Shown here in pieces: positions 5,000 to 37,963 of a DNA stretch of 64,000 nucleotides; the first letter of the stretch is position 1, and every line of letters begins with the position of its first letter. Made by a program: the position numbers and the translations under genes. This DNA comes from Lophium mytilinum. Lineage: Eukaryota. The notes beneath the pieces were generated by a model. The model searched no databases and was not told the DNA's origin. It saw only the letters and a program-made list of their open reading frames with translations. The stretch covers positions 270,606-334,605 of the forward strand of contig MU004196.1 in NCBI GenBank assembly GCA_010093605.1. The letters are read 5' to 3'.

Positions 5000-7100
5000 A
5001 TTCCTACCTGTTACATCCAGCATATTATAGTATAGGATGAGACGTCGTGACACCGACTAATTCGAGGACGGACAGGAAGAAGGCGAGACCTCTCGTTGAA
5101 GACTTAGCAATTCTTGTTTTCAAGTCCGACAACCTCTCTGACTAATGATAATTAACGTCGATGGCCGTAGGAGCTAGCAAATACAGTGCTGAACTCTCTG
5201 AGAAAGGATGAGTGCTGGAAACTATTCATGCTATCTGAGCAGAGAACCTGTTGCCAGTCAACACGAGTCTTTGTCTTATCCACGTTAGCTTGCTTATAAA
5301 CAGTCTTCCTTTGGCATCGTATGCTATTTCGTAACCAATATGCCTTCTTTTTCCTTCCTTGTTGTCAACCTCTTTCTTTGAGAGGACAACTCTCCTCTGT
5401 CTCTTTGATGTCCATTGAACGAGTAAGACATCTCATGAGCAACTGGAATTCGTCATAACATCCAGTCTTTCGTCTTCCTTTCCATTATGCTTTTTTTCTT
5501 GCTCCCGATCATTTCCTGCTGTCAACTTTCAATTCTATGGCATCGATGCCGTCTGTGATCTTGGCTTTCAGCGTTCGTTTGATTCCAAGATACCGAAGCT
5601 CAGTCCGGAGGCCAGAACCCTATCGCGTTAGCCTAGGACCAATGATCCAGTACCAAGGAAGCCCGGACCAAAGACCAGGATTTAGTACCAGGATTCAGGA
5701 CCAGGAGTCAGGACCAGTGTTCAGGACCAATGTCCAGGAACCAGCAGCCAAGACATAAGTCTACCATGGCATTCATGTGGATGCCAATGCCGCTTCTTTC
5801 ATCAACTTCAAATCCTATTGTGCCTGCAGCTTCATCACGCCTCCAACGGCTCGAGCATTCAACAGTGTGGCCGCAATCATGTCCATTGGCTCGTACAACG
5901 TAGCGATCGTCAAGGCGTCTCGGCTGGCTATCGAGTAATGTGGAGGGGAGGATGGTCGCTTGGTGCCGCGTGCGACTGTCCTGTACGATGCCTGCCAATC
6001 GACTCCAGGCTAGTCAGTATGGCTAATCGAACGAAGTAACCAAAGAGATGAGGGATGTTAGCAAACGCTCTTCGTCTTCCACCTCAACTTCACCTTTGCT
6101 GCCCTTGACTAGGTGCTTTTTGCTGAGGCTGTCTTGCGTCTGCTCTCAGAGCACCTGGTTCGACGACTCGATTGAGGGGCCGACTCTGCTGCCATCGAAG
6201 CAGACCGAGTATCCCGAATCTCTCTTGGGCACCTCCTTGATGCAAATATGTTGGGCTCGTGTGTGAGTCTGCTGGGGGTGGCCGTATATCGTTGCTGCAC
6301 GACTCCATGGACTCATACTCTAGGCCTCTTCCATCTGTTTAATGACGCTCTCCTGTGCCATGAGATGGCTCGATGGTGTGCGGCTGATCAGTATCGACGT
6401 CCGGGGCTGCCAGCCTAGCCATCACATTCGACCGCTCGTTCGGACTGCCGTCGCTGCTCGGAAGCCGGAATCAATTCCTCGCCATCCAGTATTGCTGTCG
6501 TGCTGGAGCTAGCCTGCTGCTCAGTGGCTCATATTTTGAGGTCGACGGTGTGGAGATGGCGGATGGCAGCTTGAGCAGCAATGAAGCCGTTGAACAAATA
6601 TCACGCCTGCCTCGAGGTGTGGTGCCCGCTTTCGGCCGGGTGGTCGGCGACTCTCCGTGGACACCAAAACCTAGTTATGACTGCTGCTCTAGACTCGTCG
6701 TCCGTGCTCTGGAGCTCGCCGCTTTGCTGTGGAGGGTTGATGGTGATGGGGCTGGTGACCGAAGCGGTGGCCGCGGCAGTCTATCAACAACTTCAAGGAG
6801 ACGGACGCCCGCGACGCATCTCCACTCATTGTGGTGGACGCCTTGAGCATTGCACTGCTAAAAGCATAGTGCATCGATGAAGCTACGGATCTGGCAATCC
6901 CTACAGTAGATCGACTTCAAGCCACTGGGCAGTGTCTCAAGATATGATGTTGGGGTCTCCCTGGAAAATGCTGTGAACGAAGGAGTCCAGCTCAGGGTGC
7001 CACCCCTTCAACACTGCTATTCACATCACGGCAAGAAGACCTCTTCATGTCCTGTTGAGAGTATTCTCTGTGGAGTCTACATATCGGCAGCTATGGCGAG
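5000..7100 (-). pseudogene. Possible decayed protein-coding remnant, family unrecognised
   Basis: One minus frame from about 6780 to 5765 reads as protein-like, interrupted only by TGA/TAG stops. It is followed by an intron-like segment (GTAGAC at about 5764 ... GCTAAC...TAG at about 5621). Confidence 0.25.
5633..5755. repeat. Degenerate ~13-bp minisatellite (CAGGACCARTGTY-like), about 9 copies
   Basis: Visible units include caggaccaggagt, caggaccagtgtt and caggaccaatgtc. Confidence 0.75.
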
Positions 7101-7176
7101 TAAACTAAGGGGAATGCGTGGGCCCTCATGGTGTTGCAAAGCTCGCGAATCGCCAAAAAGAAGCCCTCCACCCCCA

Positions 7177-7187
7177 GGACTCGAACT
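7177..7187 (-). promoter_or_regulatory. Isolated Pol III B-box-like motif (AGTTCGAGTCC)
   Basis: The minus strand reads GGGAGTTCGAGTCC, followed about 15 nt later by TTCTTTTT. I could not build a tRNA cloverleaf around it. Confidence 0.3.
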
Positions 7188-9349
7188 CCCAACCCTCGCC
7201 TACGGCCAAAATGCAAAAAAAAAATGTTGAAGCAACTCTTTGATAGAGCGTGTCATCCTTAGTGCAGGGGCCATGCTGATCTTCTCTGTGTTGTTTCAAA
7301 TTGACCAAATGCCCGAAGGCGGGAGATGGTCGGAAATATACGAAATATATACCTAAGCTGCGGAAAAGTAAACAAGCACGGGCCAGCTCCATGCGGGATT
7401 TTACACCTTAGGAGCGCCTCTCGAGCACCTCAGCACGCCCGAATGGATACGTTTATTGCTTGTCACGATGCACGGAGGATATGAAGAGTCTCACGGCTGT
7501 CATAACGCTTATGATCGCGATTTGAAGCTACTCTACGCGTTTTCTGGCAACTCACTCTGCTGGAAGCCAGCCACTGGACGATTTTCACCCAGTGGGATTC
7601 CAGACTAGCGGGTTTTACTGCGCCAGCTGTCAATTCGGTCACTACACTCCTACCACTGAAATCACCGCAGTGGATGATTTGGAAAAGTGAATGTAGATGT
7701 CCCACACGGTCCCCGAGTGCGAGCACGGGCTTCGAATTGACATGGCAACTGAAGCCCATCTCTGATGCACTTCCATCAGAACGAGCATATTAAGCTTCAC
7801 TTCGTGCGACTCGAAGAAGTGCAAAGGCGTTGAAACCTGCAAACCTAGCATACCCAAAGCTCTCGCCATTGCCTGAAATTCTGGAGACGCAAGTAACGCT
7901 CAGAAGATCAATAATAATGTTGACGCCAAAACTGAATATGGAAAATGCGGTTATCCTTCTCAAAACCCACCGAATCCTGGTGGTGGGACATACAGATCTC
8001 AGGGGTACTGCTGAAAGCTCCGCTTAAGCTCAATTGGGGATTCGATCATGCCCACCGTCATTCCCTCACTGCAATTTCGTGAAATGATGGAATGGAGGTG
8101 ATAAAATAACGTCGCTCACCTCCTGACATCGGAGATCATGATGCTTCGAGCCGCTTCCCGAATGACATAGATCCCACTTCTCGACCTACCTGCAACTTCA
8201 TAGCAAACAGAGCGAATAATGTGAACGAGAGAGGGCTATGACACCCAAAGTCTCAGTTCGCAAAATCTGAAATATCGAGCAGAACCTAGAAATCTTGCAA
8301 AGGTGCTGGAAGATACGGCCCAAAACCCTACCGCCTCAGGACAAAATTTGAGGAGCTCCTATTGCCGTAACACGTCCTCGGAGGAAAGCGTGGCGGTGTC
8401 GAGCGTTGCGAAGATAGCGGAGGAGTGGACTCCCTTACCTCGCCTTCAATCTAGAGGTGACAGTCAGCAGTGCTGCCGCTTACAATATCGCCTGAGAGAC
8501 TTGATATATGGTGTTCGTGGCACTAGGAAAGCTCCAGTATTATCAGAATTCTGCAAACATGCTGAAATATCGGCCCATGGTTTCACTCGGGGCGTATGGG
8601 TTGGGATGGAAAAGACGAGCTAACGTCTTGAACTCAGTTACAAGAGCGAAGTGAAAGACAATTTACCTGGAGGAACCCACTGTTTCTGCCGTGGAGGGCA
8701 ATTCGGGTGTTACGATTTCCTAAGCCTGGACGTGAAAGCACGATAGCGGTCATTGAGACCTGAATGCTGATGACCGGCCTAAGCATTCTTGTAGCATCGA
8801 AATCAATGTAAAAGCTCGGGGACTACTTCCAAAAGACGATACAGTTGAACTCCAACCTGGGATTTCAGGGATACTCAAAAATCCCTGACAGTGCTGAGCT
8901 CTTGTCATAACATCCTTCATCTCGAACTCTACACAACTGCCCATAGGCTTTCTAACTGCAACGAAAAGTTCGACATCTAAGGGCAGATCTGATAGCAAAT
9001 TCGTTTGAGGTGTACCTCAGAACTTACAAATTCTTTGGGGTCTCTAAGCATTGCTGAGGACCCGGCAGAATCATGGTCATTATAATACCCGATTTACTCC
9101 AAACCGGCGCCTTGAACGACGACAAGCAAGACCGTACGACCATCACTCCCAAAGCTTCGGCATGTCGCAAAATCTAAAGTCTTGATCTACGATTTGCAAC
9201 CTTTGACGTCTCATATCGCAAAAGTCTCCCACTGTCTTGAAGCCACCTAGAGACATATCTCTGCTTCCAAATTGATAAGCATGTTCCTATAAATCTTACC
9301 TTTGGAGCCGCGCCTCAAAGCAAAATCCGAAGGCTCGGTTCAGCACGTC

Positions 9350-12300
9350 CGAACTTTGACATTGTCTTCCCAGATTATCTCCACGTCCAGGAGTCCTTCA
9401 AGATCATATCGCTGGCCCCCTATCAAACGCATGGGATCATGGATCTTGATTGCCATGGATTACCCACAAGGAGATGCCATGTCAAACTCACAGTTCAATC
9501 CAGCGTGTGTAGGCTCCGACATCGCACATCGAAAATTACCCACCGTCCCGAGGATCTTTGGAATGATATCATTGCTTTCAAGCCGAACGCATAGAAAGTC
9601 TTGATTTGGAGTGGTTGGAAGTATGCTTGAATGGACCCACGAAAATATCCAAGGCCAGTGTCAGAGACCTATGGATGTGACATTCAACCGCGACATTTTT
9701 GACTAGCTGGTGGCCTTCGGACGATATCATACCCTCGGAAAAAAAATTTAATATCAAACTCCGACTTGAAGAGAGAAGCAAATATCTAGGCAGCTAGAGA
9801 TCGAAATTCCTATAGTCCCAATCAAAGATGAGGGAATCTGACTTTCACCCTAGAGTTCCTAATTAGAAGGGCGACTCCCGACGCCGTTGAAAGGCAACAA
9901 TGCTATGGGGTTCAAGCTTAGAATCAAACAGAGAAGCGATTTCCACCTAATCCAGCAGCTGTATCAAGCCACAGAATCCGGACTCTTGGATTCAAGAGCA
10001 GCGAAAGTGGCATTCGGCAAGGAGAACTTTGCCCAGCTAGAGCGCCTCCAACGTTGTCAAGCAATGAAAAATGCGAAGCAATCTTGATGCAAGATCGAAG
10101 GGAAGAACCAATATCATCCGAATCATGGACCAAGTGGAGGAGCGGATTCCGAGCGCCAGAGTCGAAAGAGACCGAACATGACATTCGACGGGAAATTTTC
10201 CACCAGCTAGAGGACTTCCAACGCTGGCAAAGACCTTTCAAAGGTACAGATGCAGAGTTGCAGCTCTACATGAGAAGCATCTGCATTGAATATCTCGTCC
10301 AACTCCAGTCCTCGAAAACCAGTTTTAGATCTGCAGCCTGCAGAAATGATGTCCGACCGAAAGAATTTCGACTTTCCGAAGGAACTCGGACGTCGCCAAG
10401 CAAGATTCAAAGAAGCAGGTCCATGACGTTGGAATATACACAACTTGCCGTCTCCTCTGCTTTTCGAGGTGTTTGACCTAAGTATGAGCTAGCAAGGTCA
10501 GGCTGCAAGTGTAGGAAACATGGCATCTTAGAGGAACATTCGCGAGAAGCTGGGAGACGAGCAAGGAAACTGCAGAGCCATGGCGTTGCTCGTTTGCCAT
10601 GAATATCTCAGAAGACAAGTAGGAGGGCGTTGCAGAGCCACAAGCTCAGTCCCTAAGGGTCCCGGAAGAAGAGTTCTTGGTTCTTTTCAAGAAGTTCGCC
10701 ACATGTAATGAAGATAGCGTTTGACCGACAAAATCTCGGCTAGCTAGAGGACTCCTGACGCCGCTAAACATCTAGCAAAGGAACGAGCGTGAAGCTTAGA
10801 TTTGAAGATGAAGCAAATCTTCGGGTTACCGGGTCACCAAGACCAGATTTTGATAACAGCGGACGCCAAATCCGCCTGCACAGAATTTGCACTGCCAGCG
10901 GACCTCAGACGGCGCCCATCGTCAGCCAAAACGCGATAACGTCGGGAGGTCAGATTTAAAGGACAAGAAACATTCCATTCAACCACGGAGATCTCGACTC
11001 GTTAGAGGCTTCAGACGGCGTTACCTGCGCAGCAAAACCTACGAACGTAAGGCTCTGTTTCAGGGTAGAAGCAAACCATGTATTCAAGATTCCAGGACCC
11101 GATATCGAGACTGGAGGACGAAAGCTTCGACCAGCCGGGCTTCGAGTAGCTGGAGGACGTGCGACGCCGTTCACGTCCGGCCAAAAGACCATGAAACTTC
11201 GAAGTGCTATTCGAAGGGCGTGGAATGGAACATTCGATCGAAAATATCTCAACCAGCTAAGGGGGTTCCGACGAGGCTAGCTATATTCCAAACCTACGGA
11301 CTTAGAGCTCGATTTTGAAGCTAGAGTAGACGCCATACCTTGCGGACTCCCGGGGCTAGATTCGCAGAGCCGGGATTGCAGCATTTAAATACAAAAAGCT
11401 CAAACAGCTAGGGGGCTTCAAACGCCGTCGAAGAGCGATCAAAACGCCTCGAAACCGCCAGGTCAGATATGAAGAATCGGGAGTACAGCATTCAACTGCG
11501 TAAATTTGGCCCAGCTGGGGGACCTCAAACGATGTTAAGAGGCGATCAAAATGGCGCGAAACTGCTAGGTCAGATTTGAAGGGCTGGAAACGTAACCTTC
11601 GATCAAGAGAATGTCGACTAGTTGGCGGACCTCTAACACCGGTGACCAGTGATCAAAATGCCGTGGAAAAGGGATATCAGACTTCAAGAGTTGAAAACGT
11701 GACATTCGACCGCGAGGATGTTGACCAGTCAACGGGCTTCAAACGCCGACAAGGAGCAGTCAAAACGGCGGGACTCTGCTGGGACAGAACCAAAGAGTAG
11801 GAAACTTGACATTCAACGGCGAGAATATCGACTGGCTGGCGGACCTCGAACGCCGGTAAGGAGCTATCAAAACGGCGGGAATCTACTGGGACTGATTTGA
11901 AGAGTATGCAACGGAACGTTCGACTGTGAGGAAGTTGACTAGCTGGCGGACCTCGAGCGCCGTGGAGACTCGATCAAGACCACCAGGAAAAGAGAGGTCA
12001 GACTTGAAGAGAAGAGATCATGACATCCGCGCGGCGGTTTTTGACGTTGCCAGGGCACTCCAAACATCGCTCAAGACCGATCATAACGCCCCGGAAAAGC
12101 GAAGTCAAATCTAAAGAGGAAAATTATAACATCCTTCCGGCGATTTGTGAGGCTGTCAGGGCACCTCAAACGCCGTGCAAGACCGATCAAAACGCCTTAG
12201 AAAAGCGATGTCGAATCTGAAGAGAAGAAACTGTAACATCCTTCCGGCGATTTGTACGGCTGCCAGGGTATTCCAAACGTCGTTCACGACCGAACAAAAC

Positions 12301-13190
12301 GGCGCCAGAATGCACACTGAGATTTGAAGAGGAGGAACCAAGACATCCTTGCTGCAATTTCTCATGTTGCTGGAGAGCCCCAAACGTCGGCAACACGCGA
12401 TTCAAAGCGAGAGAAATGGCACGGTGAGAGTTGAAGAGGAGAATTCCTTACGTTGATCCGGAATTTCTTTAGGCTGCCAGGGTACCTCAAACGTCGGCTA
12501 AATGCAATCAGATCGGTGCTGAGACGGGCTGTAAGAGTTGAAGAGGAGAACTCCTTACATCACTCTGCAATTTTCTCAGGCTGCCGGAGGACCTCAAATG
12601 TCGGCGAAAGGCAATCAAAACGTTGCGGAAATGGGTTGCGAGAGTTGAAGAGTCACGAACGGGACATCCGTTCTGATTTTTCTCAGGCTGCTAGAGGCCT
12701 CCAAACGTTGAGGAAGCGCGATCAAAACGGTCTGCAAAGAGGAAGTGAAAGTTGAAGAGTTGGAAACGTGACATCCGGTCCAGTTTCTCTTAGGCTGCTG
12801 GAGGACTCCAAACGTCGATGAAACGCGGTCAAGATGATGCAGAACTGGGGTGTGGGAGATGAAGAGTCACGAACGTAACATTCGTCTTGATCTTTCTCGG
12901 GCTGCCAGAGGACTCCAAACGTTGATGAGGGGCGGTCAAGATGGTACGGAAATGGGCTGTGAGAGTTGGAGAGTTGGAAACGTGACATCGGCCTTCATTA
13001 ATCACAGGCTACCAGAGGACTCCAAGCGTTGATGAAAGGTGGTTAAAATGATGTGGAAATGGGTAGTCAAAGATGAAGAGTCGGGAACATGACATCGGCC
13101 TTGCTTTTTCTCAGGCTGCTGAAGAACCTCAAACGCTGTCAAGATCAAAGCAGAATCACGGAAGGCAAGCTCAAGTTTGAAGAGGAGAAC
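9350..13190 (+). repeat. Non-coding tandem array A: about 30 diverged monomers, 107-bp core period
   Basis: The anchor GGAC(C/T)(T/C)CAAAC recurs at 11419, 11526, 11633, 11740, 11847, 11954, 12061, 12167, 12274, 12381, 12488, 12595, 12702, 12809, 12916, 13023 and 13130. Companion motifs are GATCAAAA, TTGAAGAG and TGACATYC. Longer units continue leftward to about 9350. Confidence 0.92.
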
Positions 13191-13671
13191 AGATTGGATT
13201 CAAACTACCAAAGAAAGCAACAAAAGCAACCACCAATCCCGAACCCAACCCATCCCCTTTCTGACCCCCAAAGCTTCTAAAACCTGCACGCTGTGGTCAG
13301 TATTCACATCGCAAGAAGTCACCATCATGTCACAACATCACCATCAAGTCACTCAAGCAAGGCAAGACATGAGAGAGAGCGAGAACGAGGGTCTGTCGCG
13401 ACAAGTTAGCCCAAGAACAACCATGAGAGAACAGAGGCAACGTACCAATTCGGAGGCCACAGCGGGCCTTCTCCCGGCGCCCCCTGCTGGCGCAACCCAG
13501 CAGACACGAACAAAAGAAACATCACCAAAAACCCCGAAGGGCGGACGTGCTGTGGCCATTGTCAGCACAAGAAGCAACGAAAAAGGGGAGGATAAGAACT
13601 TACCGCGGTGCCGAGAGGGCCCGGCAACTTGTCGTCAACAAAAAAAAACGAGGACCGGAAGAGGCATGCCC

Positions 13672-14154
13672 TTAGGCAGAGGCCGATTGCTTGCCACCAG
13701 CAGCGCCGGCGGACGGAGCGGACGGGGGAGCTGGGGGCGGCGAACCCGGGGGAGTCGGGGGTGCGCGGCCGGGGGCTGGGGACGGGCCGGGGGACCGGCG
13801 CCGCTGCTCTTCTGCCACGGAGGGGGAGACCTCCGACGCTGTGGACAGTTAGTGATGTTGAAAGAAGGGACTGAAAAGGGGTAGACCACGTGACAAGAAG
13901 AGGAAAAAGGTCAAAGAAGAAGATTTTGAAGGGGTAGGACAGGAACAAACGAAGGTTGATTGGGTCAAGAAGGGATGAGAGGGGTGAGCAAGAGGAGGGA
14001 ATGGTGAAGAGAAGGACCAGGAAGGACGCGATGAGTGACAGAAAAGGAAGAGGAGGCTTACCAGGCCAGTCATGCTCCTTCTTGCGAGCTATGTCGACAG
14101 TCAGTTAAGAACAGTGGAAGAAGAGGAGGAAGAAGACTTACGAGGACGCGCCAT
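13672..14154 (-). CDS. Putative spliced 68-aa Pro/Ser-rich microprotein (3 exons)
   Basis: GCCACCATGG start. Exons 14154-14142, 14088-14062 and 13838-13672. Introns GTAAGT..CTGAC..TAG (53 nt) and GTAAGC..CTAAC..CAG (223 nt). Product MARPPRKKEHDWPASEVSPSVAEEQRRRSPGPSPAPGRAPPTPPGSPPPAPPSAPSAGAAGGKQSASA*. Confidence 0.55.
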
Positions 14155-14308
14155 GGTGGCGGGCGGTGGTGGTGGGTGTGGGTGGTGGGTGGTGTGGTGG
14201 TTGGTGGGTGGTGGTCTGGTGGTGGTCGAAAGCTTGTCGCAACGGGTGGGCAATTGGGCGCGGTGTGGGCAGCTGGGCGCGGTGTGGGCAATGGGCGCGG
14301 TGTGGGCA
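14155..14308 (+). repeat. (GGT)n-rich tract plus 3 copies of TGGGCGCGGTGTGGGCA
   Basis: 17-mer copies at 14255, 14274 and 14292; dense GG/GGG runs at 14155-14226. Confidence 0.8.
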
Positions 14309-16391
14309 GGCTTTCGGACACCTCTCGAAAAAGTGGGCGACGGCCTTTACTTATACTTGGACTCCCGCTAGCGCGGCCAATCCGTTGGGCCCCTCGGATC
14401 ACCACCCTCGCGTCTGCCTGCTGCGGCCGGGTTCAACCAGACGAGGGGCCCCACAGAACCTGATAGACCGGCCAGGAACACCCCCTGATCCTCAGGGTGA
14501 AGGAAGGAGAGGTCTAGGACATCACGATAGGAAGCCGCAGCTGGATTCTATTTGCTATCACCCTCAAATGGCCGCTCCTGGGCTGCAGCGCTGCTCCAGC
14601 TTCTGCCAGCTGGGAGGACCTCCAAGAGCTATGAGCAGCTCCAATCCGCCGCTCTCACCAGCTCAAGATGTATCTCATGGCCTCACGATGTACCTCGTCC
14701 CCCAATCCAGCTCCCCCCAGGCTTTGTGTACCCCTTGCACCTCCATATCAGCCCACCGTACCTGATCGACGTGCCTGATGCCACATCAGGGCAGACCGGC
14801 CTCGCCACCTCTCCCAATGTCCCACCCGTTCGCAGATCATGCGTCGATCTGTGGAGTCAGCCCCTCTCTGGCGCCGGCGTGAACCGAGCTCTGAAACCCG
14901 ATTGTGCCTGGACTATACTGTTTGCGGCGGGGGGAGGACGGCCAACGGGTCAGGAGGGCCAGAATGGGCGCTCAACAAGCTTCCATGTGGACGGCGGGTG
15001 AGCGAATCACGCCATAGAGGGGCTCAGGCAGGTGGGCGCGCTCGGAGGGGCTGACGTAGCTGCGAAACCGCTGGGGACTGCCGCGGGGGTGGACGGAGGT
15101 CGGGGGGCGCTGGGAGAGTCGAGAGAGAGCAGAGGAGGGTGCGAGAGGGCTCGGTTTGGTACCAGGAAGGTCTGCGAGCTCGAGAGAGGGAGGGAAGAGG
15201 CATACTATGGAGTGTGAGGGCGTGAGGGCGTGAGGGTTCGAGATCTGGTGGTGAGGGTGAAGCCGGGCTGGACACGGCACGAGCAGCGCTGGCAAGCTGC
15301 CACAATGCCCAGAGAGGAGTGAGCGGACGGTGGATATGGGCTGCGGTAATTCTGGAAGGTCATATCACACTCGGCAGCATCACAATGGTCGATTTCCAGG
15401 CCTCGGGGGTGGGAATCTGGCGTGGACGTGAGGATTTTGCGGACGCCCCGCGGAGGAGCGTTTTCGGACTGTCAACACACCCAAAACACCACGAAGACGC
15501 GCCAAAATTGCTGTGCGGAAGCCTGGGAATGACGAGATGGATGCCAGAGCAGCATATTCCTCAAAATCTCCACTGAGGCTTGCGAAATCAAGGAGAGCTT
15601 TCACCGCAGCTCCAGCGCGGCGCGGAGGTCTCGGAGGTCGCCACAAAGGTCTACAAAACACCATTCAGATCGGAATTGGATACTCACAAAGCTGGCAACT
15701 TTCGGAGGGCGTTCTGCAGAGTTTGAAATCTACCCCTTTTCGCTCTTGGCTGGAATTAGGCGTTGATATAGAACTACGTGAGAGTCTCCGCTGAAAGAGC
15801 ATTCACGGGCAAGAAAGGTCTTAGAACACTATAGAACTTCTTCTAATTCACTTCTCAACACATATTTCTTCGATGACATCTGTGAAAGCTTCCATAATCC
15901 ATCCCAAGTGCGTTCAGGGGCATCTCCGGAGCTCAGAATCTACCTACGTCATACCCTGTTGCCTCGCTCACCACCATCACTCGCTACGCACCATATCTTT
16001 CATAGCATGGCCTTCTCAATACATCGAAATCCCACGCAGATCTCATGGTCTCAGCAAATAACAATATATAAAAGCTTGCAAAGAACCCATGCATTGAATC
16101 AACTACCATTCCCCTCAGCCCCCATCCCAAAAAACGCCAAAGCTATGCAAATGCCACCCACCCAGCTCTAAGTATGCCCGTGGCCCCATATCCCCCGTAT
16201 AAGAACCCTAGGCATGGTCGAAACGATGAGACCAAAGCCAGTCAAAACTCGTAGGCCAAAGCGAAAGAGAGCAGACAGCTGATGACCAGCTGCTACCGAA
16301 TAGAAACCCCAAGAAACGCCAGTAACACCATCGTTAGAAAAGTAGGGCGAGAGCTCAGCAGCACCGTCTACCATCCCATCTCATCTCGAAC

Positions 16392-25304: not shown

Positions 25305-25440
25305 TTCGCGTTTTGCTTTCGCGTTTTGCTTTCGCGTTTTGCTTTCGCGTTTTGCTAATGCCTGATGGCGCGAAGGTCTAGAAACTGAGACGGCGTTGAG
25401 GCGTTAAGGCGTTATGGCGTTACGGCGTTCGGGCGTTCGG
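25305..25440. repeat. Minisatellites: (TTCGCGTTTTGCT)x4 and (GGCGTTNN)x6
   Basis: A perfect 13-mer occurs four times at 25305-25356. An 8-bp-period GGCGTT runs from about 25392 to 25440, in the 3' flank of the AAA gene. Confidence 0.9.
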
Positions 25441-26856
25441 TTTGAGAGGGCATTGAGTGCTCTCCGGTTCTTATGTGAGTAGTTCTAGCGCAGCGTTGAC
25501 CGCTGCGCCCACAAATCAAGAAAATCTCTAAAACCTTTAGATGTGTATCCGATATGATGATGTGATATTTAATGATGAGACGTTCCTTACATATGTTTCC
25601 GTTCAATTCTCTTTAGATTAAACTGGGGGTCCCTTATTCGTTATGTGCCTTCACGTTGGAATCGACTTCTTGAGACTGCAACGTATCAAAGATGAAGCCT
25701 ACGTGAAAAATTAAGCAGCAGTGTGGAACTTTTTTATGCCCGAGATCCCTGGCCTACTGTCTGCTTGAAGTTGGATGAGCCAGATCTTACCCCAAGCCAG
25801 TGATTTCTGATTGAAGCCTTTGTCACACATGTAGTCGCCGAAATTATTCGCTATTGAGCTGGAATCTCGCAAAGCTACAAGCAGAGTTTGTTGCGCTTCC
25901 GGTGGGTGTTCGGTGTGTAGCTCAAAACGCATTCTTTCTTGCTAACTCGTTCCCGTCCAGAATAACCTGTGTAAGCTTTTGTTTTCACCCAGGTTGTGGC
26001 TGTGTCGGTGTGTTTTCGCCTGTGCTTCATGAAGGATATCGTTCGCCTTATATAGCTACCAATAAGGTGATAGAGGTACAACGTCGTTCGCTTTGAACGC
26101 GATCCGCTAAAGTGTAGGCTGAGTAGGTGCTTGTGACTAGGAACCAGAGGGTGGCGGCCCTGATACCCGACTAGGTAGAGCACTCAAGCCGAATACGCCG
26201 TGGCGAGGCTTATTCTAAATCACACGATATAGAACCTGGCATAGCCATCTAAAAGCGAATGGAGTTTGCAGATCAAAGATGTATCTAACTAAATAAGCTT
26301 GTAGATCGATACCTCAGGTAGAGATGCTCTTGACCACCAATCAGTTCTGGCGGCTAACGCCTTCACTGAAAGGTGGCATTTACACTTCTATGTCTGGGTA
26401 CTGACTTGTCTAAACGTCGAATAACCGCCTTCCTGTCGGCCAGCTCTTCTCTTCTCCGGGCTTTGCATACCGTCAAGTACTACATCGCCTTTGCACCATG
26501 TGGGAGACAGTAAGAAAAGACAGGAGGCGGAATCTCGTTTTCCGCGAGGCCTGAACCTTAAGTATTTCCGTATTCAAGAGTGGCAGGTGTGTCGGGGAGC
26601 AGGCCGAGATCGAAGTTCAGCTGAACGCTATGCCGAGACGCCTGCAGCAAGGTTGAAACGCCATGAACTCCTCATTGGATACGGCATGCAGCGAGTCTGC
26701 CTAGCACCCCGCCTCAAATAAATCGTGCGCTGTCAGAATTCTTTCCGTCTTCTCCGTCTGCTCCGTCTTCTTTCTTCACTCGAGACTGCTGGGTGTTAAT
26801 CCATCCCAAGTATCTTTTCATCAAATGATGGTCAATCTCGTAGCAACGTATTTGCA

Positions 26857-29800
26857 ATGGGAGATCCGTTCTCTATCACCGGAAGCGCCGTCGGCGTCAT
26901 ATCCCTTGGCCTCCAAGTCTGCCAGGGCGTCATAACCTACTACTCAAACTTCCGGGCCTTAGGCGATGATATTGCAACGATTATCCAGAAAACAGAAAGC
27001 CTGAACGGTCTCCTACAGGTCCTGGAAGCACCCCTGAAAAAAGTCGAGTGTGATACCAATCCCATCTCCGCGCAGGTCAGGTTGTCAGTTATTGCATGCG
27101 AGGCTGGTTTAGCCAAGTTAGATCACGCGGTGACAAAGTATGCCAACGACGTACCGGCCACTACAGCGAAAGCGAAGATATGTCTATTCGGCGAAAGAGC
27201 GCTGTATCCGTTCAAAAGGGAGACTTTGAAGGAGTTAAGTGCTACTCTCGAGGGGTTGCACCATCATCTCGATTCTGCGGTGCAAGTTCTGAACTTGTAG
27301 GTATTCTACCCTCTATTGGAACGTCATCTGGCAGCCTGGCTGAAATGCATGGTAGAGACTCCCTAAACCAACAGTCAGATCTCACTCGCTCGATATCAAC
27401 ATCAGTGGCATCACAAAGCAATGCTCTACAAGGACACGTGACCTTCGAAGCTCAATCGATCGCAGGACGTTTAGAGCAACAGATGACTACAAACACTGAT
27501 GTGATCTTGGGACGTCTAGATCAGCAGATGGCCAATGCTCAACTGTTTATGAAACGTGTCGAGCAGCTAGTAAGCATGGAAGTGCCCAGCTGTATACATT
27601 AGACTGAATCACCTCCAGGAATTTACAATTACCTCGAGCCCTGAGAGCCTCGTTCGCAGTCCTTCGTCTCTAAGGGAAGTTTGCAAGGAGCAATACAGCT
27701 TATGTGATGAAGTCAGCCAGTTCAGCAATCTGCGCCTAATATCCCGTAGAATAATCACCCGTCCGAGACCACTTTGTTCTTGTAGGCGACGTCAATACCA
27801 CGCTGAGCAGGCGCGATCGCTATCGTTCATCTCGGTGTTCCAACGTCAAGTCTCGACTCATCATCCTTCTTGCGCACTCTTTGGTTTCAATCTCCGCGAA
27901 AAGTCTATCGGGTCTCGAATCACGTACTGTGGACGATTTCTCGGGCGTATCCTAGAAGCCTCCCTAACTGTCTCCAGAGGACCTGCAGGGTTTTCAGTTA
28001 TTGGGCCTCAGCTAAAGTTCCGTGCTGTCGTGTCCGAAGATCATTCGCCCGCCTTCAAACTCATTCACGGGCTAAATCGCGATCTTAGGTATCGCCAAAG
28101 CGTCAGCGAGGATGATTTACGCAGACTCGGATTGTTGCCATATCAGCTTGTGCAAATGTTTCACGATCGCCGTGCTTCTCCAACAGATGTCACCATAGAG
28201 GGGAAGAGTCTACTTCATGTAATACAGTGGCCCCTGAACATTGCCCCAACAAGGATGATAGAAAGCTAAAGCAAGGGTAATAGATAGCTGCGTCCTTGAT
28301 AGAACCACTTCTAAAGAACAGTGCTCCCATGAGCACTCCAACTATCCTCGAAATGTGTAGAGAGCTCTTCACTACCCTAGCTGGAGCTGGGGTACCCATA
28401 GACCAACATGATGAGTACAGAAAGTTAGTATTTGCAAACATCCTGACCACTGTTTCGCATCCCAAGTTTACTGCGAGTCTGACCAAGTGACATACAAATA
28501 GGACCGCATTAGATTGCCTCGTTTTCCGCCTAAGATATCGTTCATCTATGAACATTCACCCAGATATATGGACAAGCTTCATATCGGCGTTGATCGATTG
28601 CGATCTAGAAATTACAGGATTTGATCCATATTTTGAATTTTCAAAGATGAAGATCTTATATTCCGTCTATCACAGACTACTCATATCGGATAGCTGGAAG
28701 CACGGTAAATTTGTGGCACACCGCCTGCAAGCTCTGGAAACAAACCGCTAAAGTTTACAGCAATTGATCTTCCTCATCTCACTCGAGTTATTTTATCGCG
28801 ATCGGATACAGAGCTCGACAAAATACTACGTCGGACCCCCGCTACTGAATTGGTAGACACGTGGGATATGGGCGGATATTATATACTTGACATTGCAGCA
28901 GATTGGCCGATCGGGATCGCGAAACTATTAGATCATGGTGTCAGTGTTTATGATGTCAGAAGCAAAGACCGACCGACGCCTTTGGACTACGCTTGTGTCT
29001 GCAACTTGGAATCCTGCAAGCTCCTCATCGACGCTGGTATTTGCGTGACTAATTGGAATCTCGATTTGTCTCTCCGTTCAGGGGTTCTGGGTGTGCAATA
29101 TACGATCATTTCTGGTCTAGTAGATCGACGACATCAACTCAAGCAATACGCGAGGAAAGTTTTGCCGTCGGAGCTCCAAGAAAGATATGGTTTGAGTGAT
29201 GACCGGATCCTAGATGCTCAGGCGGTGGACGTCTACGAAGCCATCTGTCATATTGATGGATCAGAACACAGAGCCCTATACCCAGGAGTGCTTAGAGATA
29301 CCGTCTACCACTGCAGGAAATTGACCAAGCCAATGGCCGAGATTTTGTACCAGGCTGGCTTCCGAGACATAGATTGTCGGAATCAAGAGGGAATTTTACC
29401 CGTCCTAAGTGTAATAGGCAGCCCTAGAATTGTTCTCAATATGAGTACACATCTAGAACTTGTCGAATGGCTATGGTCCAAAGGAGTGAACCTACACCAG
29501 GTGGAGGAACCTTCAAATACAACGCCGGCTCTTGCTCTTGTAGACGAACTCAGGTTCTTGGGGCCATGGAGCAGATTCAAAATCAAAGATATTGGCCAAG
29601 CGTTGTTAGCTGAAGTTTTCCTGCCCGACATATCCGACGACTGCGAATGCTACTGTTCTCCTCACGGATGTCGCGCAATATCACGAATTCTCAGAGGTAC
29701 CGAATGGCTGCAGCTTAATCATCCTCAAAGGATGATGATCCTCGGGTCATGGGAACCGTTTCGAGAGCTTGCTCCCTGGTTCGATTCTGCCATCATCAGA

Positions 29801-30118
29801 GCTCTGACTTTTGGAGGACTGGGACTCAGGCACACTTGCCACTCGAACTTCAATATGTTGAGGCCTTGCCGTACACCATCCGAAGAAGAAATCCACGAAA
29901 TCCATGACGAGGAGCACGAAATCATTGAACAGTTGGAAGATCTAGTCATCGAATTCGAAACACAACTCAAACACCACAATGGCATACTCCTAGAGTTCCT
30001 AAAAGGCTACTGGAGCGAAAGAATGCACGAAGTACTGAGTGAGGAGGTGGATTTGGATGAGGCAGAGATACACCGAATCGAGGAGGTCGGCGTTGTTCTG
30101 CATCGATCGAAGGTTTGA
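26857..30118 (+). CDS. Fungal HeLo-like (STAND N-terminal type) domain plus degenerate ankyrin repeats; no NACHT/NB-ARC seen
   Basis: N-terminus MGDPFSITGSAVGVISLGLQVCQG...ALYPFKRETL. Five introns (starting at 27297 and at about 27570, 28219, 28424 and 28704) join in frame. Ankyrin-like GKSLLH, TALD and TPLDYAC..CKLLIDAG; Cys cluster DDCECYCSPHGC; acidic C-terminus after LTFGGLGLRHTC. Confidence 0.75.
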
Positions 30119-30159
30119 ATCTGGGCCATAGGTTTTCATACCACCTCTTTCTCATCCAG

Positions 30160-31715
30160 ATGGAGGTAGAGGACTCCTAACGGTGACAAACCCATGGAAA
30201 AAGCGTATGGAAAGGGCTCATCTCATTTGAAGCGGCTGGAGTATGATATTCAGGTAGCGACTTTCATATTGTACTTAGACGTCCTTCACCATGTTATATA
30301 TGTGCGCAGCCTTAAGGCTTATGGGCTCTGATATGACATCTCCTTGCCCGTGTACCCCTTCATAGTCATGAAGATGGACGCAGAGGCCTCCCAACGGCGG
30401 CGAGAAGATGGAAAATGGAGGTAGAAAGCGTAGATTCAATCTAGAGCGAGCGGAAATAACATCCGTGGGCCGATCATCATGTAACACGTAGACGTCCTTC
30501 ACGAGATCCAATGCATGCGCAGCTTTACGGTCTAGAGAGCTCGATACAAGCTGTTCTATTCTCGCACGACCTCCTGCTTAGGAGGGCGTCTGCGGAGGAC
30601 TTCTGGCATGCGCAAGTGGGACGTGAAAAACACCCATTTGATTTGGAATTTACAGTACATGACATTCATTGCGTAAAAACCCTGAAACCTCTAGACGACC
30701 TCCGCATATTTTTGGATAGGCGCAGCTTCATCGTCGCAAGGGCTAAAGTCAAACGTTGCTATTCTTACATTGCTTCTCGACCACAGCTATACATTAAAAG
30801 GGCTCCTGACACTGGCAAGCATATAGAAAAAGGCTATAGAAAGCACGCATCTAATTCCAGGGCTCTAAACTATAACATCTACATATTTGCCATTTTGAAA
30901 GGTTTAGATGGCCTTCGCGTAATTTTCCAGATCTACACTTTCACGATAAAGAGCGTCTACTTTGAAGTGCATTTATTGTTGTATTCGTTACGCTCTAGAA
31001 GCCATCTCTAGAGGACTCCTAACACTAGCAAGTAGCTAGAAAAACGGCGTAGAAAGCACGCGCCCAGTTCAAGTCGTCTAGAACATGACATCCAAATTGG
31101 CTCTATCTTGAAATGTCCAGGCAGACTTCATGTACTTTTCCAAATGAGCAGTTTCACAACAAAGGGCGTGTAGTCTAAAGTGTCTTTGTTACTGCATTAC
31201 CTCAGGTCCGGAAGACGTCACCGGAGGACTCCTAGCATTGGCAGGTGTATGAAAAAGGGTCGCAGAAAGTACATGTCCAATTCCAGGTATCTGGAACATG
31301 ACATCGACGTAGTCGCCAGTTTGAACTGTTCAGAAGGCCTATACGAGATTTCACGTGCGCGAAAAATCGCCATTGCGAAGGCCTAATTCTGCGCATCCGG
31401 GATATAACATCCATGGGACTATTATTCTGATACCTTTGGGAGGACTTTACAAGATTGCACATATGCGCAATATCGCAGTTACGAGGGTTCAATCTAACGC
31501 CTTCAATATATGACATCCATAGGGTCTCTATCTTAGTACCTCCAGAAGGATTTCACGAGATTGCACTTACGTGCAAAATCACGATGATGGGGACCCAATT
31601 TGACGCATCCAAAAAATGACATCAGCAGAGTGAAAATCACGAAACATCTTGACTGGCATCACGCAATTTTCCACATGCGCAATGTCACAATCAAGTGAGT
31701 TCAATTTGAAGCAGA
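30160..31715 (+). repeat. Non-coding tandem array B: 213-bp dimers followed by 106-bp monomers, same family as array A
   Basis: The T(G/A)ACATC-like anchor occurs at 30244, 30457, 30660, 30873, 31086, 31299, 31405, 31511 and 31617. GAGGACTCCTAAC-like motifs occur at about 30169, 30383, 30798, 31011 and 31224. Confidence 0.88.
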
Positions 31716-31853
31716 GAGTTGGATTGATCAGAAGAGAACCCGAATTCCGAACCATTTTGTATGACCGTTGCCAGCGCGTCAACCCTTGAGGAGCCCCTCA
31801 GGGCATCCAAGCAGTATGCAGAACCACTATCTACAGGCCTAGAACCCCACCCA

Positions 31854-32558
31854 TCAGTTCGCCCACTTGCTAGCCATGAGGCCCGGCACCTTGGCAGTAG
31901 GAGCCTTCGATTCGGCCGGCTTCTCCTTCTTCTTTTCCGGATCTGACGCGACCACGGGGGAAGGAACAGGGGACGGAACCGGGGCAGCAACAGCGCGCGG
32001 AGCAGGCGCAGGAATGGAGGCACGAGGAGCAACGGGAGCAGGAATAGAGGCACCAGGAGTACGCTGCCGTGAAGCGCCCGAAATGACGCGCATTCCCTCC
32101 CCCCAGTCACGCCGACCTCGTTCAGCGGCTCCGAGATGCGGGTAGACGGTCTCATTTCGCGGTGTGCTGGAGGCCATCGGCACCACACGGCCACGGCCAG
32201 AGATCTCCCCACGCGCGGCTCGATTCAGACGGTGCAGTTGTCCGGCGTGCAGCTCGCCCAGGTCGTCGGCATGGTCGTTGACGTCTTCGGTGCCGCGGTG
32301 GAAGTCTGGCCTCAATCAGCATCGTGTGACCCAAAGGGTGTAAATCAGGAAGGGTTGGAACTCACTTTGCCAGTCTGCGGCTGCGCGCTCGAAGCCAGGC
32401 CGGGCACGTCCTGGAATCATGGTAGAGCCTCCGAGACCGCGGTAGAAGGCAGCATCTCGATCGCCGGGGGCTGCGACGGCTTCGTTGTAGCGGGAGGTGC
32501 CGAGGTCGCCCTCGGTGAAGTCGCGAGCGTGGTGGTTGTTGAATCCGTTTGTAGTCAT
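31854..32558 (-). CDS. Uncharacterised ~214-aa disordered Pro/Ala-rich protein ending GLMASKWAN
   Basis: CACCATG at 32558. A 60-nt intron at 32365-32306 (GTGAGT..GCTGAT..CAG) joins ADWQ to NFHRGTED in frame. A TATAAG motif lies at about 32780. Confidence 0.7.
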
Positions 32559-35500
32559 GGTGACGGGACGGATGGTGCTTGTGAGTGGGGTAATAGACAG
32601 TAGGTTCGTAGAAGGCTTGTAGGTGAGCAGCGCTGTGTTGGAGAATGAGGTGGATGTTGTAGGTGGAGGGTGAGCGGGCTGTCTAGAAGAGGGAGGAAGA
32701 TGTTGTAAGAAGGCGGGTGAGCCGTCGGGGGGTAGCGAGGAATCTTCTGGAGGCGGTGAAGTAATGTGAACGCGGGCTTATACAGAGCTGGAAATTCGGC
32801 TCCCGCGTCCTGCTCTGGTGACGAAGTAGTAGACGATTGATACAATGCTGCCGATGATGAGCAACGCGAGTATTATGTACGCGAAGATGAAGAGGGCAGC
32901 CATATGGGAAGACGTCTTTTGAATGATGTGTGCAGTTGTGGTGATGTTGTGGAGGCGAGAGCGAGAAGCAGATGATATATTTGACTGACCGCCCAACCGC
33001 ACGCGAGACCACGGTGCGGGCCGCACCGCCTTCTTGAGCAGCCTCTACACTTGGCTGCCACTGTTTGCGGTGCCCCGAGGCATTTTCGGAATTCTGATCT
33101 GGATACAAGCCCAGCAGATTGAACAGTTGTTATACTCGACAGGCCACACCAGACAGCGGCAGAAGAGTGTACACATATTGGAAGTATGGCGCACCGCTCC
33201 AGGCCTCTATCGGTGCTTTACACGCTTCTGACAGGATGTACGGATATCTAGACCGAGATACTGTACGGTAGCACAAGGGCTGCGCGCTTCAATCCCGAAT
33301 ACATCCACGCTGCTGACAGACCTAGTAGAATCTCTGCGCATCCCAACCTGCAGTGAGCTCTTGAGCACCTCCTCTAGACTTTCAAGCCTTCTTCGAGCCT
33401 CCTCGAGGACAGGGTGCAGCTTCAAGCCCTCCTCGCCTTCCGATCGATGCCCCTCGCGCCACGGCGCCCCGCCGACACGGCGAAGTCGACATGGGACCAC
33501 CAAAAGCAGGGACTAGAGATACTGGCACGATCCAGCTTGCGAAATTGATGGCGGAGCATGGTCATAGAGACGGCATTCGTCCCGCGGGGCAATGCGATGG
33601 CGACAGCGCGCTCCGGCGACAGGACTATGGTTGGCGACTGCTGCGGCGGAGTATATCAGGCATGGCGGCCACCTTTAAGACGGCTATCTTGTAGGGGGTC
33701 GACGGTATACAAACGTGTTTGGAAAGCCAATTTGAGAGCCGAGATGACTTATGGACATAGGTCTCGCAGATCCCCCTAGAAGACCGAGCTGACAAGCGCT
33801 CAAGACCCATCCAAGTAGCCGTCATACTTCAAGCGCTGAAGAACTTGCCCTAAAACAACCCCCACACGCGATGCCGACTTGCAGCATCGGAAAATGGGAC
33901 CACATTGAGGATATTGGGATCCCGGGTTTGGACGCCACCAGCCGGGACGCTTCAAGAATAAACAAAGAGCGGGAGAGTTTGTTCCAGAAGTAAAAAACAT
34001 AAAGAGCAGATTATAAAGAAGAGACAGAGATGTAGAAGCAAAGCAAGCGGAGAAGCGGGCAAATTATGATGCTGAAATGAAAAAGAAAGACGAAAGCCGG
34101 TACCGTTATGGGACGTATGCCCTCTCGTAGCTCCCTGACATCCACTTTGGGCTATCTGACAGCTTTCAGCGACCTATGAGAAATGCCATACTACATGATC
34201 ATCTTACTTTTGGAGGGTTCAGCGTCTCAGTCTCAATCTCTCTAGTCCTCAATCGTCTAGACCATCCTAGGATCCTACAGGATTCTTAGCCTCCTAGCGT
34301 TAATGAGATGGCAAGAGAAGGAATCGCACCGTGGTGATACAAACGGCATGAAGGAGCGGAATGACAGCTTAGTGGAGCTTTGCTATGGCAGGGCCGTTGG
34401 GGTTGATAGCCCCTGATTCTTGGGATGGGACATGGTCACGTGACTCATGTCCAGAGTCCAATCCTCAGGTAAAACACCAAAATGGCCTCTGTGCTTAAAG
34501 AATCCTCAACAAAACGTCCCGGCCAGGCGCATGGAATCTATTCGTGAAACTTAAGACCAAAGGTGTACGTGCACTCCGCTGTGTCAGTCTCGCTCTGTAA
34601 GCATAGCCGCTTTCTCATGCTGCCTCAGATGCTCAGTCATCTCACAAGCTTACTTCCTCCAGGACGCAGAGACCGGAAGAGATCAACGCTACCTTAAAAG
34701 CCTTTTGGCAGAGTCCTCGTTCATGGTGAAGAAGGAGGAAAAGGGATGGCACCTGGGTCGAAATAAAGTTCCCCGCCATTGTCTCGCTTGCCCCTGACTG
34801 GTACCACGGCCCGTTCGCATGCAGAGCCGTGGCACGCTTCGGTAATTGCCATGCAATATATGTGTATTGCGTTCGCCTGGGTTCCGGTGTCGATCTCATC
34901 TCACTCAGCTCCTCATCTACACTCCGTTCCTAAAGACGATCAATCCAGCGTGCTTTCAAAGACAAATAGAATATGGTCCAGGTCTCTAGATGAAAACCGC
35001 CGGATTGATGGACTTCCAGCTAGACCCAGGGACAGAGACATTATTTGTAACCAGCAATACGACATCGGGAGCTGTGGGAAGTCCCCCTGTGAAGACTTGG
35101 TGAGGTCAATCTAGCTCGGTGTATATGCATTCGCAATCCATGGATGTACCAACTCTTCAGGCCATGAAGGTCGCGCCGAAAACCTTTTGTCGGCTGTCTT
35201 CCAATTTGCTTGATAGCTCCGGATCTGAGCCTAGGCTGGAGGTTTCCATGGTCAAACCCTTCCCACCAAGTGGCTAGAAAACTGCATCGCATGGCTAAAT
35301 ATCTGAATTCTTTACGTTGGATGACCTTCCATGATAGTCCGCCTTCTATTGTCCAGGAATGGGACTTGGACTGGTACCTATCCGATATGGGATCTTCTCC
35401 TTTCTTCTCTCCTTTCTATCCTCCATTCGTCAATCGACCCGGACAAACTGTATATCTTTTGAAAATTGTTTTAATGCTCGCTCGGATTGTCTCATTGCAG

Positions 35501-37963
35501 ACCCACAGATGTCGTCCACATCTGGCATAAAATCAGCACCATGAAGGAAACCCCCGAACTCTTTAGCTACACCCTAAACCCATTGGTTGGAATGAGTATA
35601 AGATGAACTCCTTATCGGGACCAATTGGTGGGCAACTTGGGTACCATCTCCACGTTAGCGAGGAAGATTTAGTATGGGCTTTCGTTCGACGCCTGCGGTA
35701 AACCTTATGATTCTGCTGGGCTCGAGGGGACGCTCGAGTTCGTTGAGGCCGTATGATTCGATGTCATACCGCTCGACTAGGTGTTGAAAATGAACACAGT
35801 GAGGATGTGCCATAAAAGGTTGCCTCCGATTCAAAGAGTGAAAGACATTGACCAGCAATTAGGCAGGCTGGAGGCCATTGACGAACCCTAGGGAATGAGG
35901 CCACGAAGACCGCCCAAGGACTGGCTTCTCTTTTGCGACAGAAGCACTAGGCCGCAGTGTATCTCCAGGCCTTGTACTGCCCAGATGTACTAGGCATATC
36001 TCCGTCCCATTCGCCGACGCCAAAATACCTCTTGTCTCCGCAAGTATGGTCCGGTTCATTCTATATCCAGCAATCCGGTACGCCTTGGCCATCTCGATTG
36101 CCTTGGAAACTTTGACCTTAGCAATGGCTCTCGAATCGGGGATGCCGTGGGCCCGCGGCTTGCTTCTTGACTGGTTCGGCACCTTGGTTGCCAGCATAGT
36201 GGGTGTTTGCTTGGAAAAGTGACCTGCTGTGCCTGTCCAGTAAGCAGCGACCTTATAACGCGTTAATCACGGCCATCGGATTGAGTGTAAGATGTTTGGG
36301 CCCGGAAGCCTTCCCTAGCTTCAAAAACGAAAAGTAGTGCTACCCCCGTGGGATCTCCGGGCGTCAGTCATCACCGTTTTGCTGCCTTAGACATGCCCAG
36401 CCACAAACCCCTAGGATCTCAATGAAGGAGGGTGATTGCATGAGGTATTATACTCGGGAATTTCCCGAGCTCAGAACGACGTCCCATAACATTTGTATGA
36501 CCTTGGCTTCGCGGCAGGGCGAGGCTGAGAGGAGACGAAACCCGGTCGAGGGAAAAGCTTAGTCTAGTTGAAAGAGTATTAATGCTAGCTAGAGCTTTGT
36601 GAAGATGGTGTTGGTAGGGTGGTGGTTACTCGCTGGAGCTGAACGAAGGTGTCTAGATGGTGCGGGCATGAGCTGGCTGGTGGTATCCGAAGCGACGCCA
36701 ACCACAGGAGCGAGAATAAGCCGCGTTGACTCAGATCTGCCGAGCAGAGTACGCTTTTGAGTAGTGAGTGCTGGTAAAGTAAATAAAAGAAGAGGGTGTT
36801 GAATGAGTCGTTGGTGGAGGGAGAGGACGCGAGAGCCCGGAGAATGGAAAACACTAGGACAACGATCTACATCACGACCACATAGCAGAGTCCTCTCAGA
36901 CTATTCACGTATCCCACAGAACTCAGTGTTCACCGCGTCCGACTCCGCTACCGTGTCATCTGCATCTGACGACCCTCTATCATCCTCCCCAATGCTGCCC
37001 AAAGAAGCACTCCCAAACTCCACGCGCTCTTTGCGTTGACGGTAGTTATTTGGACGAGCACTCGCCTATCACAGCTTCAAAGGCACAATCTGCTCTAGTA
37101 TCCGATTGATGTTTGATTCTAGTCTGCTATAATCTACTTAGCACACTCGGTTTCTGGACCTCCAGTTTCGAAGATGCTCGGCCGAAACCCCTTCGGCCAA
37201 CCATCCCATCGAGCCCTTTCTTTTACCAACGCCTCTTTTGACTCTGCTTTCAACTTCAACAACTACACCACTCCGGCGATTTTCCTTCGGCTTGTTACAT
37301 TCCGCTCTCTCGATAACTACTACACACGGGTCCGTCAAATATGTAAAGCAGTATTCGGCATCCAACGCCTCTTAGAAGTCGCGACGGTATAAGATCGGAG
37401 TCTAGTCATGCATGGGAAGGCCCTATCATACCACAGTGACGAAGCTGTCGGGGATGACGAAGGGATCTCGAAGGCTTAGAGAAATTACCAACGGGTGGAT
37501 TACGAGGTGGAAGAGCTAAATCAAGATTGCGAGCGGGTTGATAACTCTCCGAACTGAGAAAACGGGAATATACAGACGGATGCAGTAAGTAAATTGCTTC
37601 CTAGCTTGGGGGCCCTATAGGTTAGTGCAAGATATTGTCGCGTTGCCTAGACATCGATGCAAGCGGAGGATTGCATGCCAAGGCGCCATTGTCCCAAAGA
37701 GGGAATATTTCGAGACATTTAACAGTTCCGCTTCCAGTATACGGCACCTTTTTATCGAAAGATTAGGAAGCAGTCGGAGGAACACAACGATATGATGACT
37801 ATTTGCACAGAAGTACAAAAGCACTGGAAGATGTCGTTTGAGAAGATCATCCTAAGAAACACTCACAGCAATCAGCCAAATCCCAAAACCACACCTTTGT
37901 TATCGTCCAAGAAGAATTATTACTTCAATTCTTCGCCTTTTTGCAAATTCTAAGAAACACAAT

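Follow-up and report, generated by a model that had tools for sequence, protein, structure and literature searches.

A probable satellite-type tandem array of a ~107-bp monomer family fills the gap between two convergent genes of Lophium mytilinum

Satellite-like repeats dispersed as short euchromatic arrays are represented by the TCAST-like and Cast elements of Tribolium castaneum, as described in the available excerpts of several reports (PMC3411249, PMC4675708, PMC11610590; review PMC10048060). In insects, molluscs and primates, satellite-type families located among genes are well documented, going by parts of three such accounts (PMC3411249, PMC7492417, PMC7719264). For Lophium, Dothideomycetes or filamentous fungi, a literature search found no description of the family considered here or of one like it. 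The array under study, designated array B, occupies positions 30139-31715 (+) of a 64-kb window, namely the whole stretch of 64,000 nucleotides of Lophium mytilinum DNA that was analyzed, and fills the gap between two convergent genes. It has a sister array in the same window, designated array A. Judging from the excerpted descriptions, array B has in common with the Tribolium repeats head-to-tail non-coding monomers of ~100-200 bp in arrays of 1.5-3 kb near or between genes, and the ~107-bp family as a whole shares with them the occurrence at several loci, locus-specific variants, dimeric higher-order units and a kept monomer length. Unlike the repeats in those descriptions, it was seen at two loci (in a 64-kb window), has no known heterochromatic 'mother' array, consists of far more diverged monomers (~60% identity) and resides in a filamentous ascomycete.

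Alpha satellite is organized in higher-order repeats, which collapse by unequal crossing-over. Array B resembles it in having an a+b dimer as the amplified unit and chimeric monomers that would have arisen by out-of-register exchange, but it is non-centromeric and small. Hypervariable minisatellites, or VNTR loci, classically have units of 10-60 bp with near-identical copies, and their arrays expand and contract through slippage and unequal exchange. Array B is likewise a single-locus non-coding tandem array in gene-rich DNA, but its unit is longer and its copies are old and diverged. Alpha repeats are also found in primate euchromatin, according to part of one report (PMC7719264). Repeats borne by Helentrons or Helitrons form satellite-like arrays at dispersed euchromatic sites, as described in the accessible part of PMC7492417, and the ~107-bp family shares this distribution; unlike them, it showed no element termini, common flanks or transposon genes. 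For L. mytilinum itself, the excerpted text of PMC12910237 gives a bimodal age distribution of transposons. As in satellite-like families, the copies of array B are arranged head to tail, are non-coding, occur at more than one locus and form higher-order units.

The periodicity of array B was evident from several analyses. The autocorrelation of the segment 30160-31715 reached 0.413 at a lag of 213 and 0.346 at a lag of 106, with a background of 0.253 and a maximum of 0.311 over 200 shuffles. A repeat search returned families with a spacing of 213/214 and 106, and self-blastn aligned 30799-31092 with 31012-31305 (71% over 301 nt, E 8.5e-10). Array B was not reported by Tandem Repeats Finder even at a minimum score of 30, since the likeness of its units is just ~55-71%, while array A was found by this tool with periods of 107 and 214. 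Anchors of the TGACATC type were located at positions 30244, 30457, 30660, 30873, 31086, 31299, 31405, 31511 and 31617. The steps between them are 213, 203, 213, 213, 213, 106, 106 and 106, i.e., modal (213 or 106) in seven of the eight cases, and they reproduce the series given in a first-pass annotation of this DNA. The lone step of 203 is explained by the MAFFT alignment, where the third unit (B3a) has one gap of 10 nt. The same annotation had described this unit as shorter by exactly one helical turn; the single 10-nt deletion stands, but array B has no helical-period composition signal that would bear out the helical part of the description.

The array starts at ~30139 (blastn alignment of 30139-30214 with 30353-30428) and ends at ~31711-31715 (Bb profile match at 31643-31711, E 4.3e-6). 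The convergent stop codons that flank it are located at 30116-30118 and 31854-31856, in agreement with the earlier remark that the repeat nearly fills the gap between them.

The higher-order unit of array B is a 213-bp a+b dimer, which is repeated six times at 30160-31427 (+), with lengths of 214, 211, 204, 213, 213 and 213 bp. The third dimer (204 bp, 30585-30788, +) holds the sole 10-nt deletion, in B3a, and the remaining indels in the units are a few of 1 nt. In global alignment, two 'a' halves are 55-71% identical and two 'b' halves 53-67%, and a-b pairs are at the shuffle baseline of 54%. The 'a' halves are homologues of the 107-bp unit of array A, which is detected by the 'a' halves only; the motifs GGACTCC.AAC and ACATC have been lost from the b halves. 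At the 3' end, four 106-bp monomers, namely B6b, B7, B8 and B9 (31322-31715, +), are chimeras with a b-type head and an a-type tail, and the first three of them are mutually 65-67% alike. The first ~70 positions are b-like in three of the four monomers, where positions 4/8-72/75 of the Bb profile match 31435-31502, 31541-31606 and 31643-31711 (E 4e-6 to 9e-3); the fourth was matched weakly (E 2.9). The final 45-65 positions are a-like, also in three of the four, where positions 41/59/60-105/106 of the Ba profile match 31365-31425, 31485-31532 and 31592-31637 (E 5e-4 to 2e-2).

This unit layout allows us to infer how the array may have been amplified. One ~107-bp monomer would have duplicated, and divergence of the two copies would have given the 213-bp a+b dimer. 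Recombination out of register, or slippage during replication, then presumably amplified this dimer about six-fold. A 106-bp chimera could have been produced if a b half crossed over with an a half at a shift of half a dimer; b/a chimeric units of this length are as expected from unequal crossing-over. The chimera would then have been amplified four-fold at the 3' end of array B. Later, the units may have drifted to ~60-70% identity; the changes comprise substitutions of an ordinary kind, the 10-nt deletion and a few indels of 1 nt.

Array A is located at 10033-13190 (+) and is built of 107-bp units, which are in register from 11400 to 13190. Tandem Repeats Finder reported a period of 107/214 at 11742-13135 and a period of 214 at 12471-13119, and nhmmer gave 16 core matches with E 1e-19 to 1e-25, plus weaker ones back to 9821. 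Array A therefore exceeds the part of it that had been compared in the first-pass annotation, and runs from about 10033, perhaps from 9821, to 13190.

Reciprocal profile searches revealed the homology of the two arrays. A profile of 16 array A units matched array B at 30167-30253 (E 9.7e-4) and 31008-31097 (E 2.2e-3), with further, weaker in-phase matches at 31220 and 30382. In the opposite direction, a profile of the six 'a' halves of array B matched array A at 13012-13105 (E 8.8e-6) and also at 10743, 10206 and 11624 (E 3e-3 to 7e-3), and it found nothing better than E 2.7 in the window outside the two arrays. All matches between the arrays are on the + strand. In neither direction did any of 300 dinucleotide shuffles of the array searched attain the observed score: the best shuffles scored 8.2 and 6.4 bits, and the real arrays 21.3 and 14.8. 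The profiles align collinearly over 87-90 positions, and this accounts for the 67-bp anchor offset common to both arrays. Thus, the proposal that A and B form one family, in the same orientation and with the same anchor offset, was upheld. An iterated family profile run over the 64 kb gave 27 matches, all on the + strand and all inside array A or array B, with the 'a' units of array B at 30167, 30382, 30799, 31008 and 31221; within the window searched, the family is present at these two loci, 17 kb apart, and the dispersal supposed in the first-pass annotation is thus seen at two sites of a 64-kb stretch. A metagenome locus (L001) that carries a 20-base two-anchor pattern was rejected as a chance match, as it has no periodicity and no profile match beyond the fixed motif.

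The consensus sequences of the two arrays are the same at 55 of 91 columns. Over the match columns, identity averages 62.5% among the units of B, 61.7% among those of the A core and 49.6% between the arrays. In a maximum-likelihood tree of 26 units, five 'a' units of array B form one clade (98/91 support), and adjacent units of array A group locally. This clustering by locus fits separate amplification or homogenization at each locus. With a median of 0.22 changes per column for its end branches, the tree agrees with what the first-pass annotation had supposed on both points, the age of the family and its homogenization locus by locus. The further statement of that annotation, that the arrays keep phase, fails for the older part of array A: before 11400 the matches of the iterated profile are out of register, with spacings of 170, 153, 254 and 259, which indicates that unit length is not rigidly held in the family. 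The best-kept columns in both arrays are those of the GGACTCC.AAC and ACATC motifs (Spearman rho 0.32, p 0.002), a correlation to which little weight was given, as the alignment of B to a profile made mostly of A introduces a bias. Segmental duplication was rejected as the origin of the two arrays, since word-7 blastn found no similarity between the flanks of A and those of B and self-blastn found no other internal repeat in the window.

Some features of array A and its surroundings may be added. In the tree, three of its edge units (10033 and 10739 at the 5' end; 13114 at the 3' end) are placed on the B side, weakly supported; this hints that B-like variants could be the ancestral form of the family. 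The array lies in a ~9-kb stretch (6900-16300) without a Pfam-recognizable gene, and no recognizable open frames were found on either side of it. Its + strand is strongly purine-rich (AT skew of 0.23-0.27 at 10-14 kb). Downstream of it there is a GC-rich (0.59) segment with GGT/GTGG low-complexity repeats at 14154-14308. A tblastn search with a single-exon translation of the minus-strand gene that adjoins array B did not reveal a paralogue next to array A.

The transcripts around array B were deduced from contigs of run X3, which was taken as RNA from its GT..AG splicing and whose sequence is that of the window where it covers it. The DNA runs X1 and X2 belong to one sample, probably the source of the window. 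A spliced RNA contig (26764-30420, +) represents the transcript of a plus-strand gene that encodes 984 aa (26857-30118; five GT..AG introns). Its 302-nt 3' UTR spans the first dimer of array B and part of the second. The 984-aa protein has weak ankyrin matches in its C-terminal half, below the Pfam cut-off, and its N-terminus may resemble the N-terminal domain of fungal NLR/STAND-type proteins. From the other side, a minus-strand transcript (RNA contig at 31718-34719, -, three introns) carries a 214-aa ORF at its 3' end, and its 136-nt 3' UTR reaches to within 3 nt of the final base of array B. Thus, one transcript enters the array and the other abuts it. A protein search identified the 214-aa product as a hypothetical protein of Lophium mytilinum (99% identity), and its counterpart in Mytilinidion resinicola is 54% identical. 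The minus-strand RNA contig is 2835 nt long, and its longest ATG-started ORF, that of 214 aa, lies in the last 780 nt; the spliced leader of ~2 kb without a long ORF may have come from an assembly join or from merging with a non-coding transcript upstream, or it may be a long 5' UTR. The interior of array B (30421-31666) has no RNA contig, which has no bearing on expression. Between the two arrays, the window contains a kinase gene with ARM-like repeats, a short-chain dehydrogenase and a BCS1-type AAA ATPase; the kinase is consistent with the sepH gene that had been placed there earlier.

As the first units of array B are transcribed within the 3' UTR of the plus-strand gene, the units themselves might be supposed to be genes, namely tandem small structured RNAs, a locus generating small RNAs or exons of a repeat protein. 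A 183-aa stop-to-stop frame does cross 30460-31011, but it matches no Pfam family, and a search of proteins of 100-321 aa gave no relative; moreover, the unit length cannot be divided by three and stops occur in every frame of the array. Among eight single-unit folds, that of 31002-31108 (+ strand) gave a z below -2 (z = -2.18), but the other seven were no better than shuffles, the consensus structure of 21 units contained 0 pairs and Rfam gave no match in array B at E up to 1. In array A, Rfam gave one chance-level match (E 0.92), and at gathering score the only match in the whole window was U6; no tRNAs were found there. The coding and structured-RNA readings of the array B units are thereby largely refuted, and we consider it barely conceivable that the units are genes of any of these kinds. 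Boxes resembling those of C/D snoRNAs, seen by eye in some units of array A, were also rejected, since they are not kept across units and Rfam found nothing.

Many filamentous fungi mutate repeats by RIP, which is recognized by a TpA/ApT index above ~0.89 and a (CpA+TpG)/(ApC+GpT) index below ~1.03, together with an excess of C:G-to-T:A changes. These indices are 0.78 and 1.28 in array B and 0.46 and 1.13 in the core of array A. The transition to transversion ratio is 2.4 in B and 1.4 in the core of A, and the transitions are symmetric (20 vs 26 in B, 104 vs 85 in A). With negative indices and symmetric substitutions, RIP was rejected as the source of unit divergence. A regional centromere was rejected as well: array B measures 1.6 kb, its GC content of 0.45 is close to that of other spacers and expressed spliced genes lie on both sides of it. 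The view of the first-pass annotation that one ordinary regional centromere is not involved is supported by these data.

The position of the array between two transcript ends raises a further reading, in which array B would work as a chromatin or DNA-binding element, either by providing phased protein-binding sites or as a spacer by which convergent transcription units are separated or terminated, with the 106/213-bp spacing under selection. The unit length has been kept at 30-45% sequence divergence, the GGACTCC.AAC and ACATC motifs persist in both arrays, and array B fits the gap between the convergent genes exactly, with both transcripts ending inside it or at its edge. However, in composition analysis of array B neither WW nor SS dinucleotides gave a 10-11-bp signal; for AA/TT, a weak peak at 11.2-11.9 exceeded the 95% level of shuffles. 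The periodicity of array A consists of harmonics of 107 only and, for AA/TT, 11.9 is stronger than 10.7. Helical phasing as a compositional signal was rejected for both arrays. In addition, the b halves are without the motifs and the older part of array A is out of register. No open frame could be recognized to either side of array A, which therefore gives no sign of lying between convergent gene ends. All these observations make a role as a chromatin or DNA-binding element quite improbable.

The conservation of unit length deserves separate consideration. The MAFFT alignment of 21 units contains two internal 1-nt gaps, and this well-kept length counts against a neutral reading of array B: set against ~0.22 changes per column, it may point to a constraint on spacing, which would not be expected if the array were purely neutral. 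Stable monomer length is, however, a general trait of satellite DNAs. As satellites are commonly length-stable and the older part of array A has lost its register, the unit length was not read as proof of function. In a bolder version of the functional reading, the ~107-bp family would be a lineage-specific euchromatic element whose unit length is selected and whose sequence mostly is not, serving as a phased spacer or chromatin boundary at gene 3' ends and keeping convergent transcription units apart. Selection on length would explain both the few indels at 30-45% divergence and the ending of both transcripts in or at array B, and, if true, it would point to a spacing-dependent chromatin role; we give it very little credence.

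It was also considered how the family came to occupy two sites. Two unlinked arrays with unrelated flanks call for some means of moving a monomer or a short array. A decayed non-autonomous mobile element (Helitron- or Helentron-like, a MITE with central repeats or similar) could have carried the arrays as tandem repeats in its interior; it would have seeded them at two places or more, and its ends would have eroded since. The same orientation of two unlinked arrays, 17 kb apart and with unrelated flanks, would fit such an element, and satellite-like arrays borne by Helentrons in the oyster offer a precedent, as far as the excerpt of PMC7492417 describes them.

A second genomic copy of the 3' edge of array B points in the same direction. 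The segment 31667-31864 is 86% identical to a 713-nt contig (28 differences in 198 nt, no gaps) and takes in the last 49 nt of the array, the 3' UTR of the minus-strand gene and 11 nt of coding sequence. The depth of this contig in the two DNA runs is 170 and 197 vs 161 and 143, which corresponds to a single copy, and in the RNA run it is 755 vs 6-20 for the local genes. The 30-nt loose ends of the contig suggest weaker similarity onward on both sides. It may be a third locus of the ~107-bp family or a duplicated 3' end. Apart from this piece, the source contig was the only one in the DNA runs that matched 26000-36000 at a likeness of at least 80%, a level at which more diverged copies would escape. 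The depth of the source contig over array B equals that of the flanks, the contig depth being one figure per contig.

Other searches were unfavorable to a mobile element. No terminal inverted repeats bracket array A or array B, where only short inverted repeats (12-21 nt, 75-92% complementary) were found, and the flanks of the arrays are dissimilar. No transposase, reverse-transcriptase or helicase domains were detected at E 1e-5 or better in the 126 open frames of at least 110 aa in the window, which has no other internal repeat. The suggestion that the repeat is carried by a mobile element, put forward in the first-pass annotation, thus gained nothing from the terminal inverted repeats, flanks and protein domains that were looked for. 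Since the units of A and B are only ~50% alike, eroded termini would be invisible; the negative results thus weaken this reading rather than refute it, and we regard it as unlikely.

The sequence data as a whole argue that array B is probably a neutral, decaying, non-coding euchromatic satellite-type repeat of the same ~107-bp monomer family as array A. Beyond serving as a spacer and as 3' UTR material, it would have no sequence-specific function. As an ordinary repeat, array B is chiefly of use for annotation, where it should be masked and not be mistaken for a centromere or a gene. The fungal ~107-bp family combines two old arrays, dimers, chimeric monomers and a stable length with no mark of RIP, and represents a small clean case of the origin, movement and decay of tandem arrays in a compact genome.

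Several other elements of the window were noted. A perfect 13-bp tandem repeat of 4.0 copies (TTCGCGTTTTGCT) is located at 25305-25356, just downstream of the BCS1-type AAA ATPase frame, and it is adjoined by an 8-bp tandem repeat of 5.8 copies (GGCGTTAA) at 25392-25437. The U6 spliceosomal RNA gene found with Rfam is full-length and is located at 7221-7320 on the minus strand (82 bits, E 2.7e-19).
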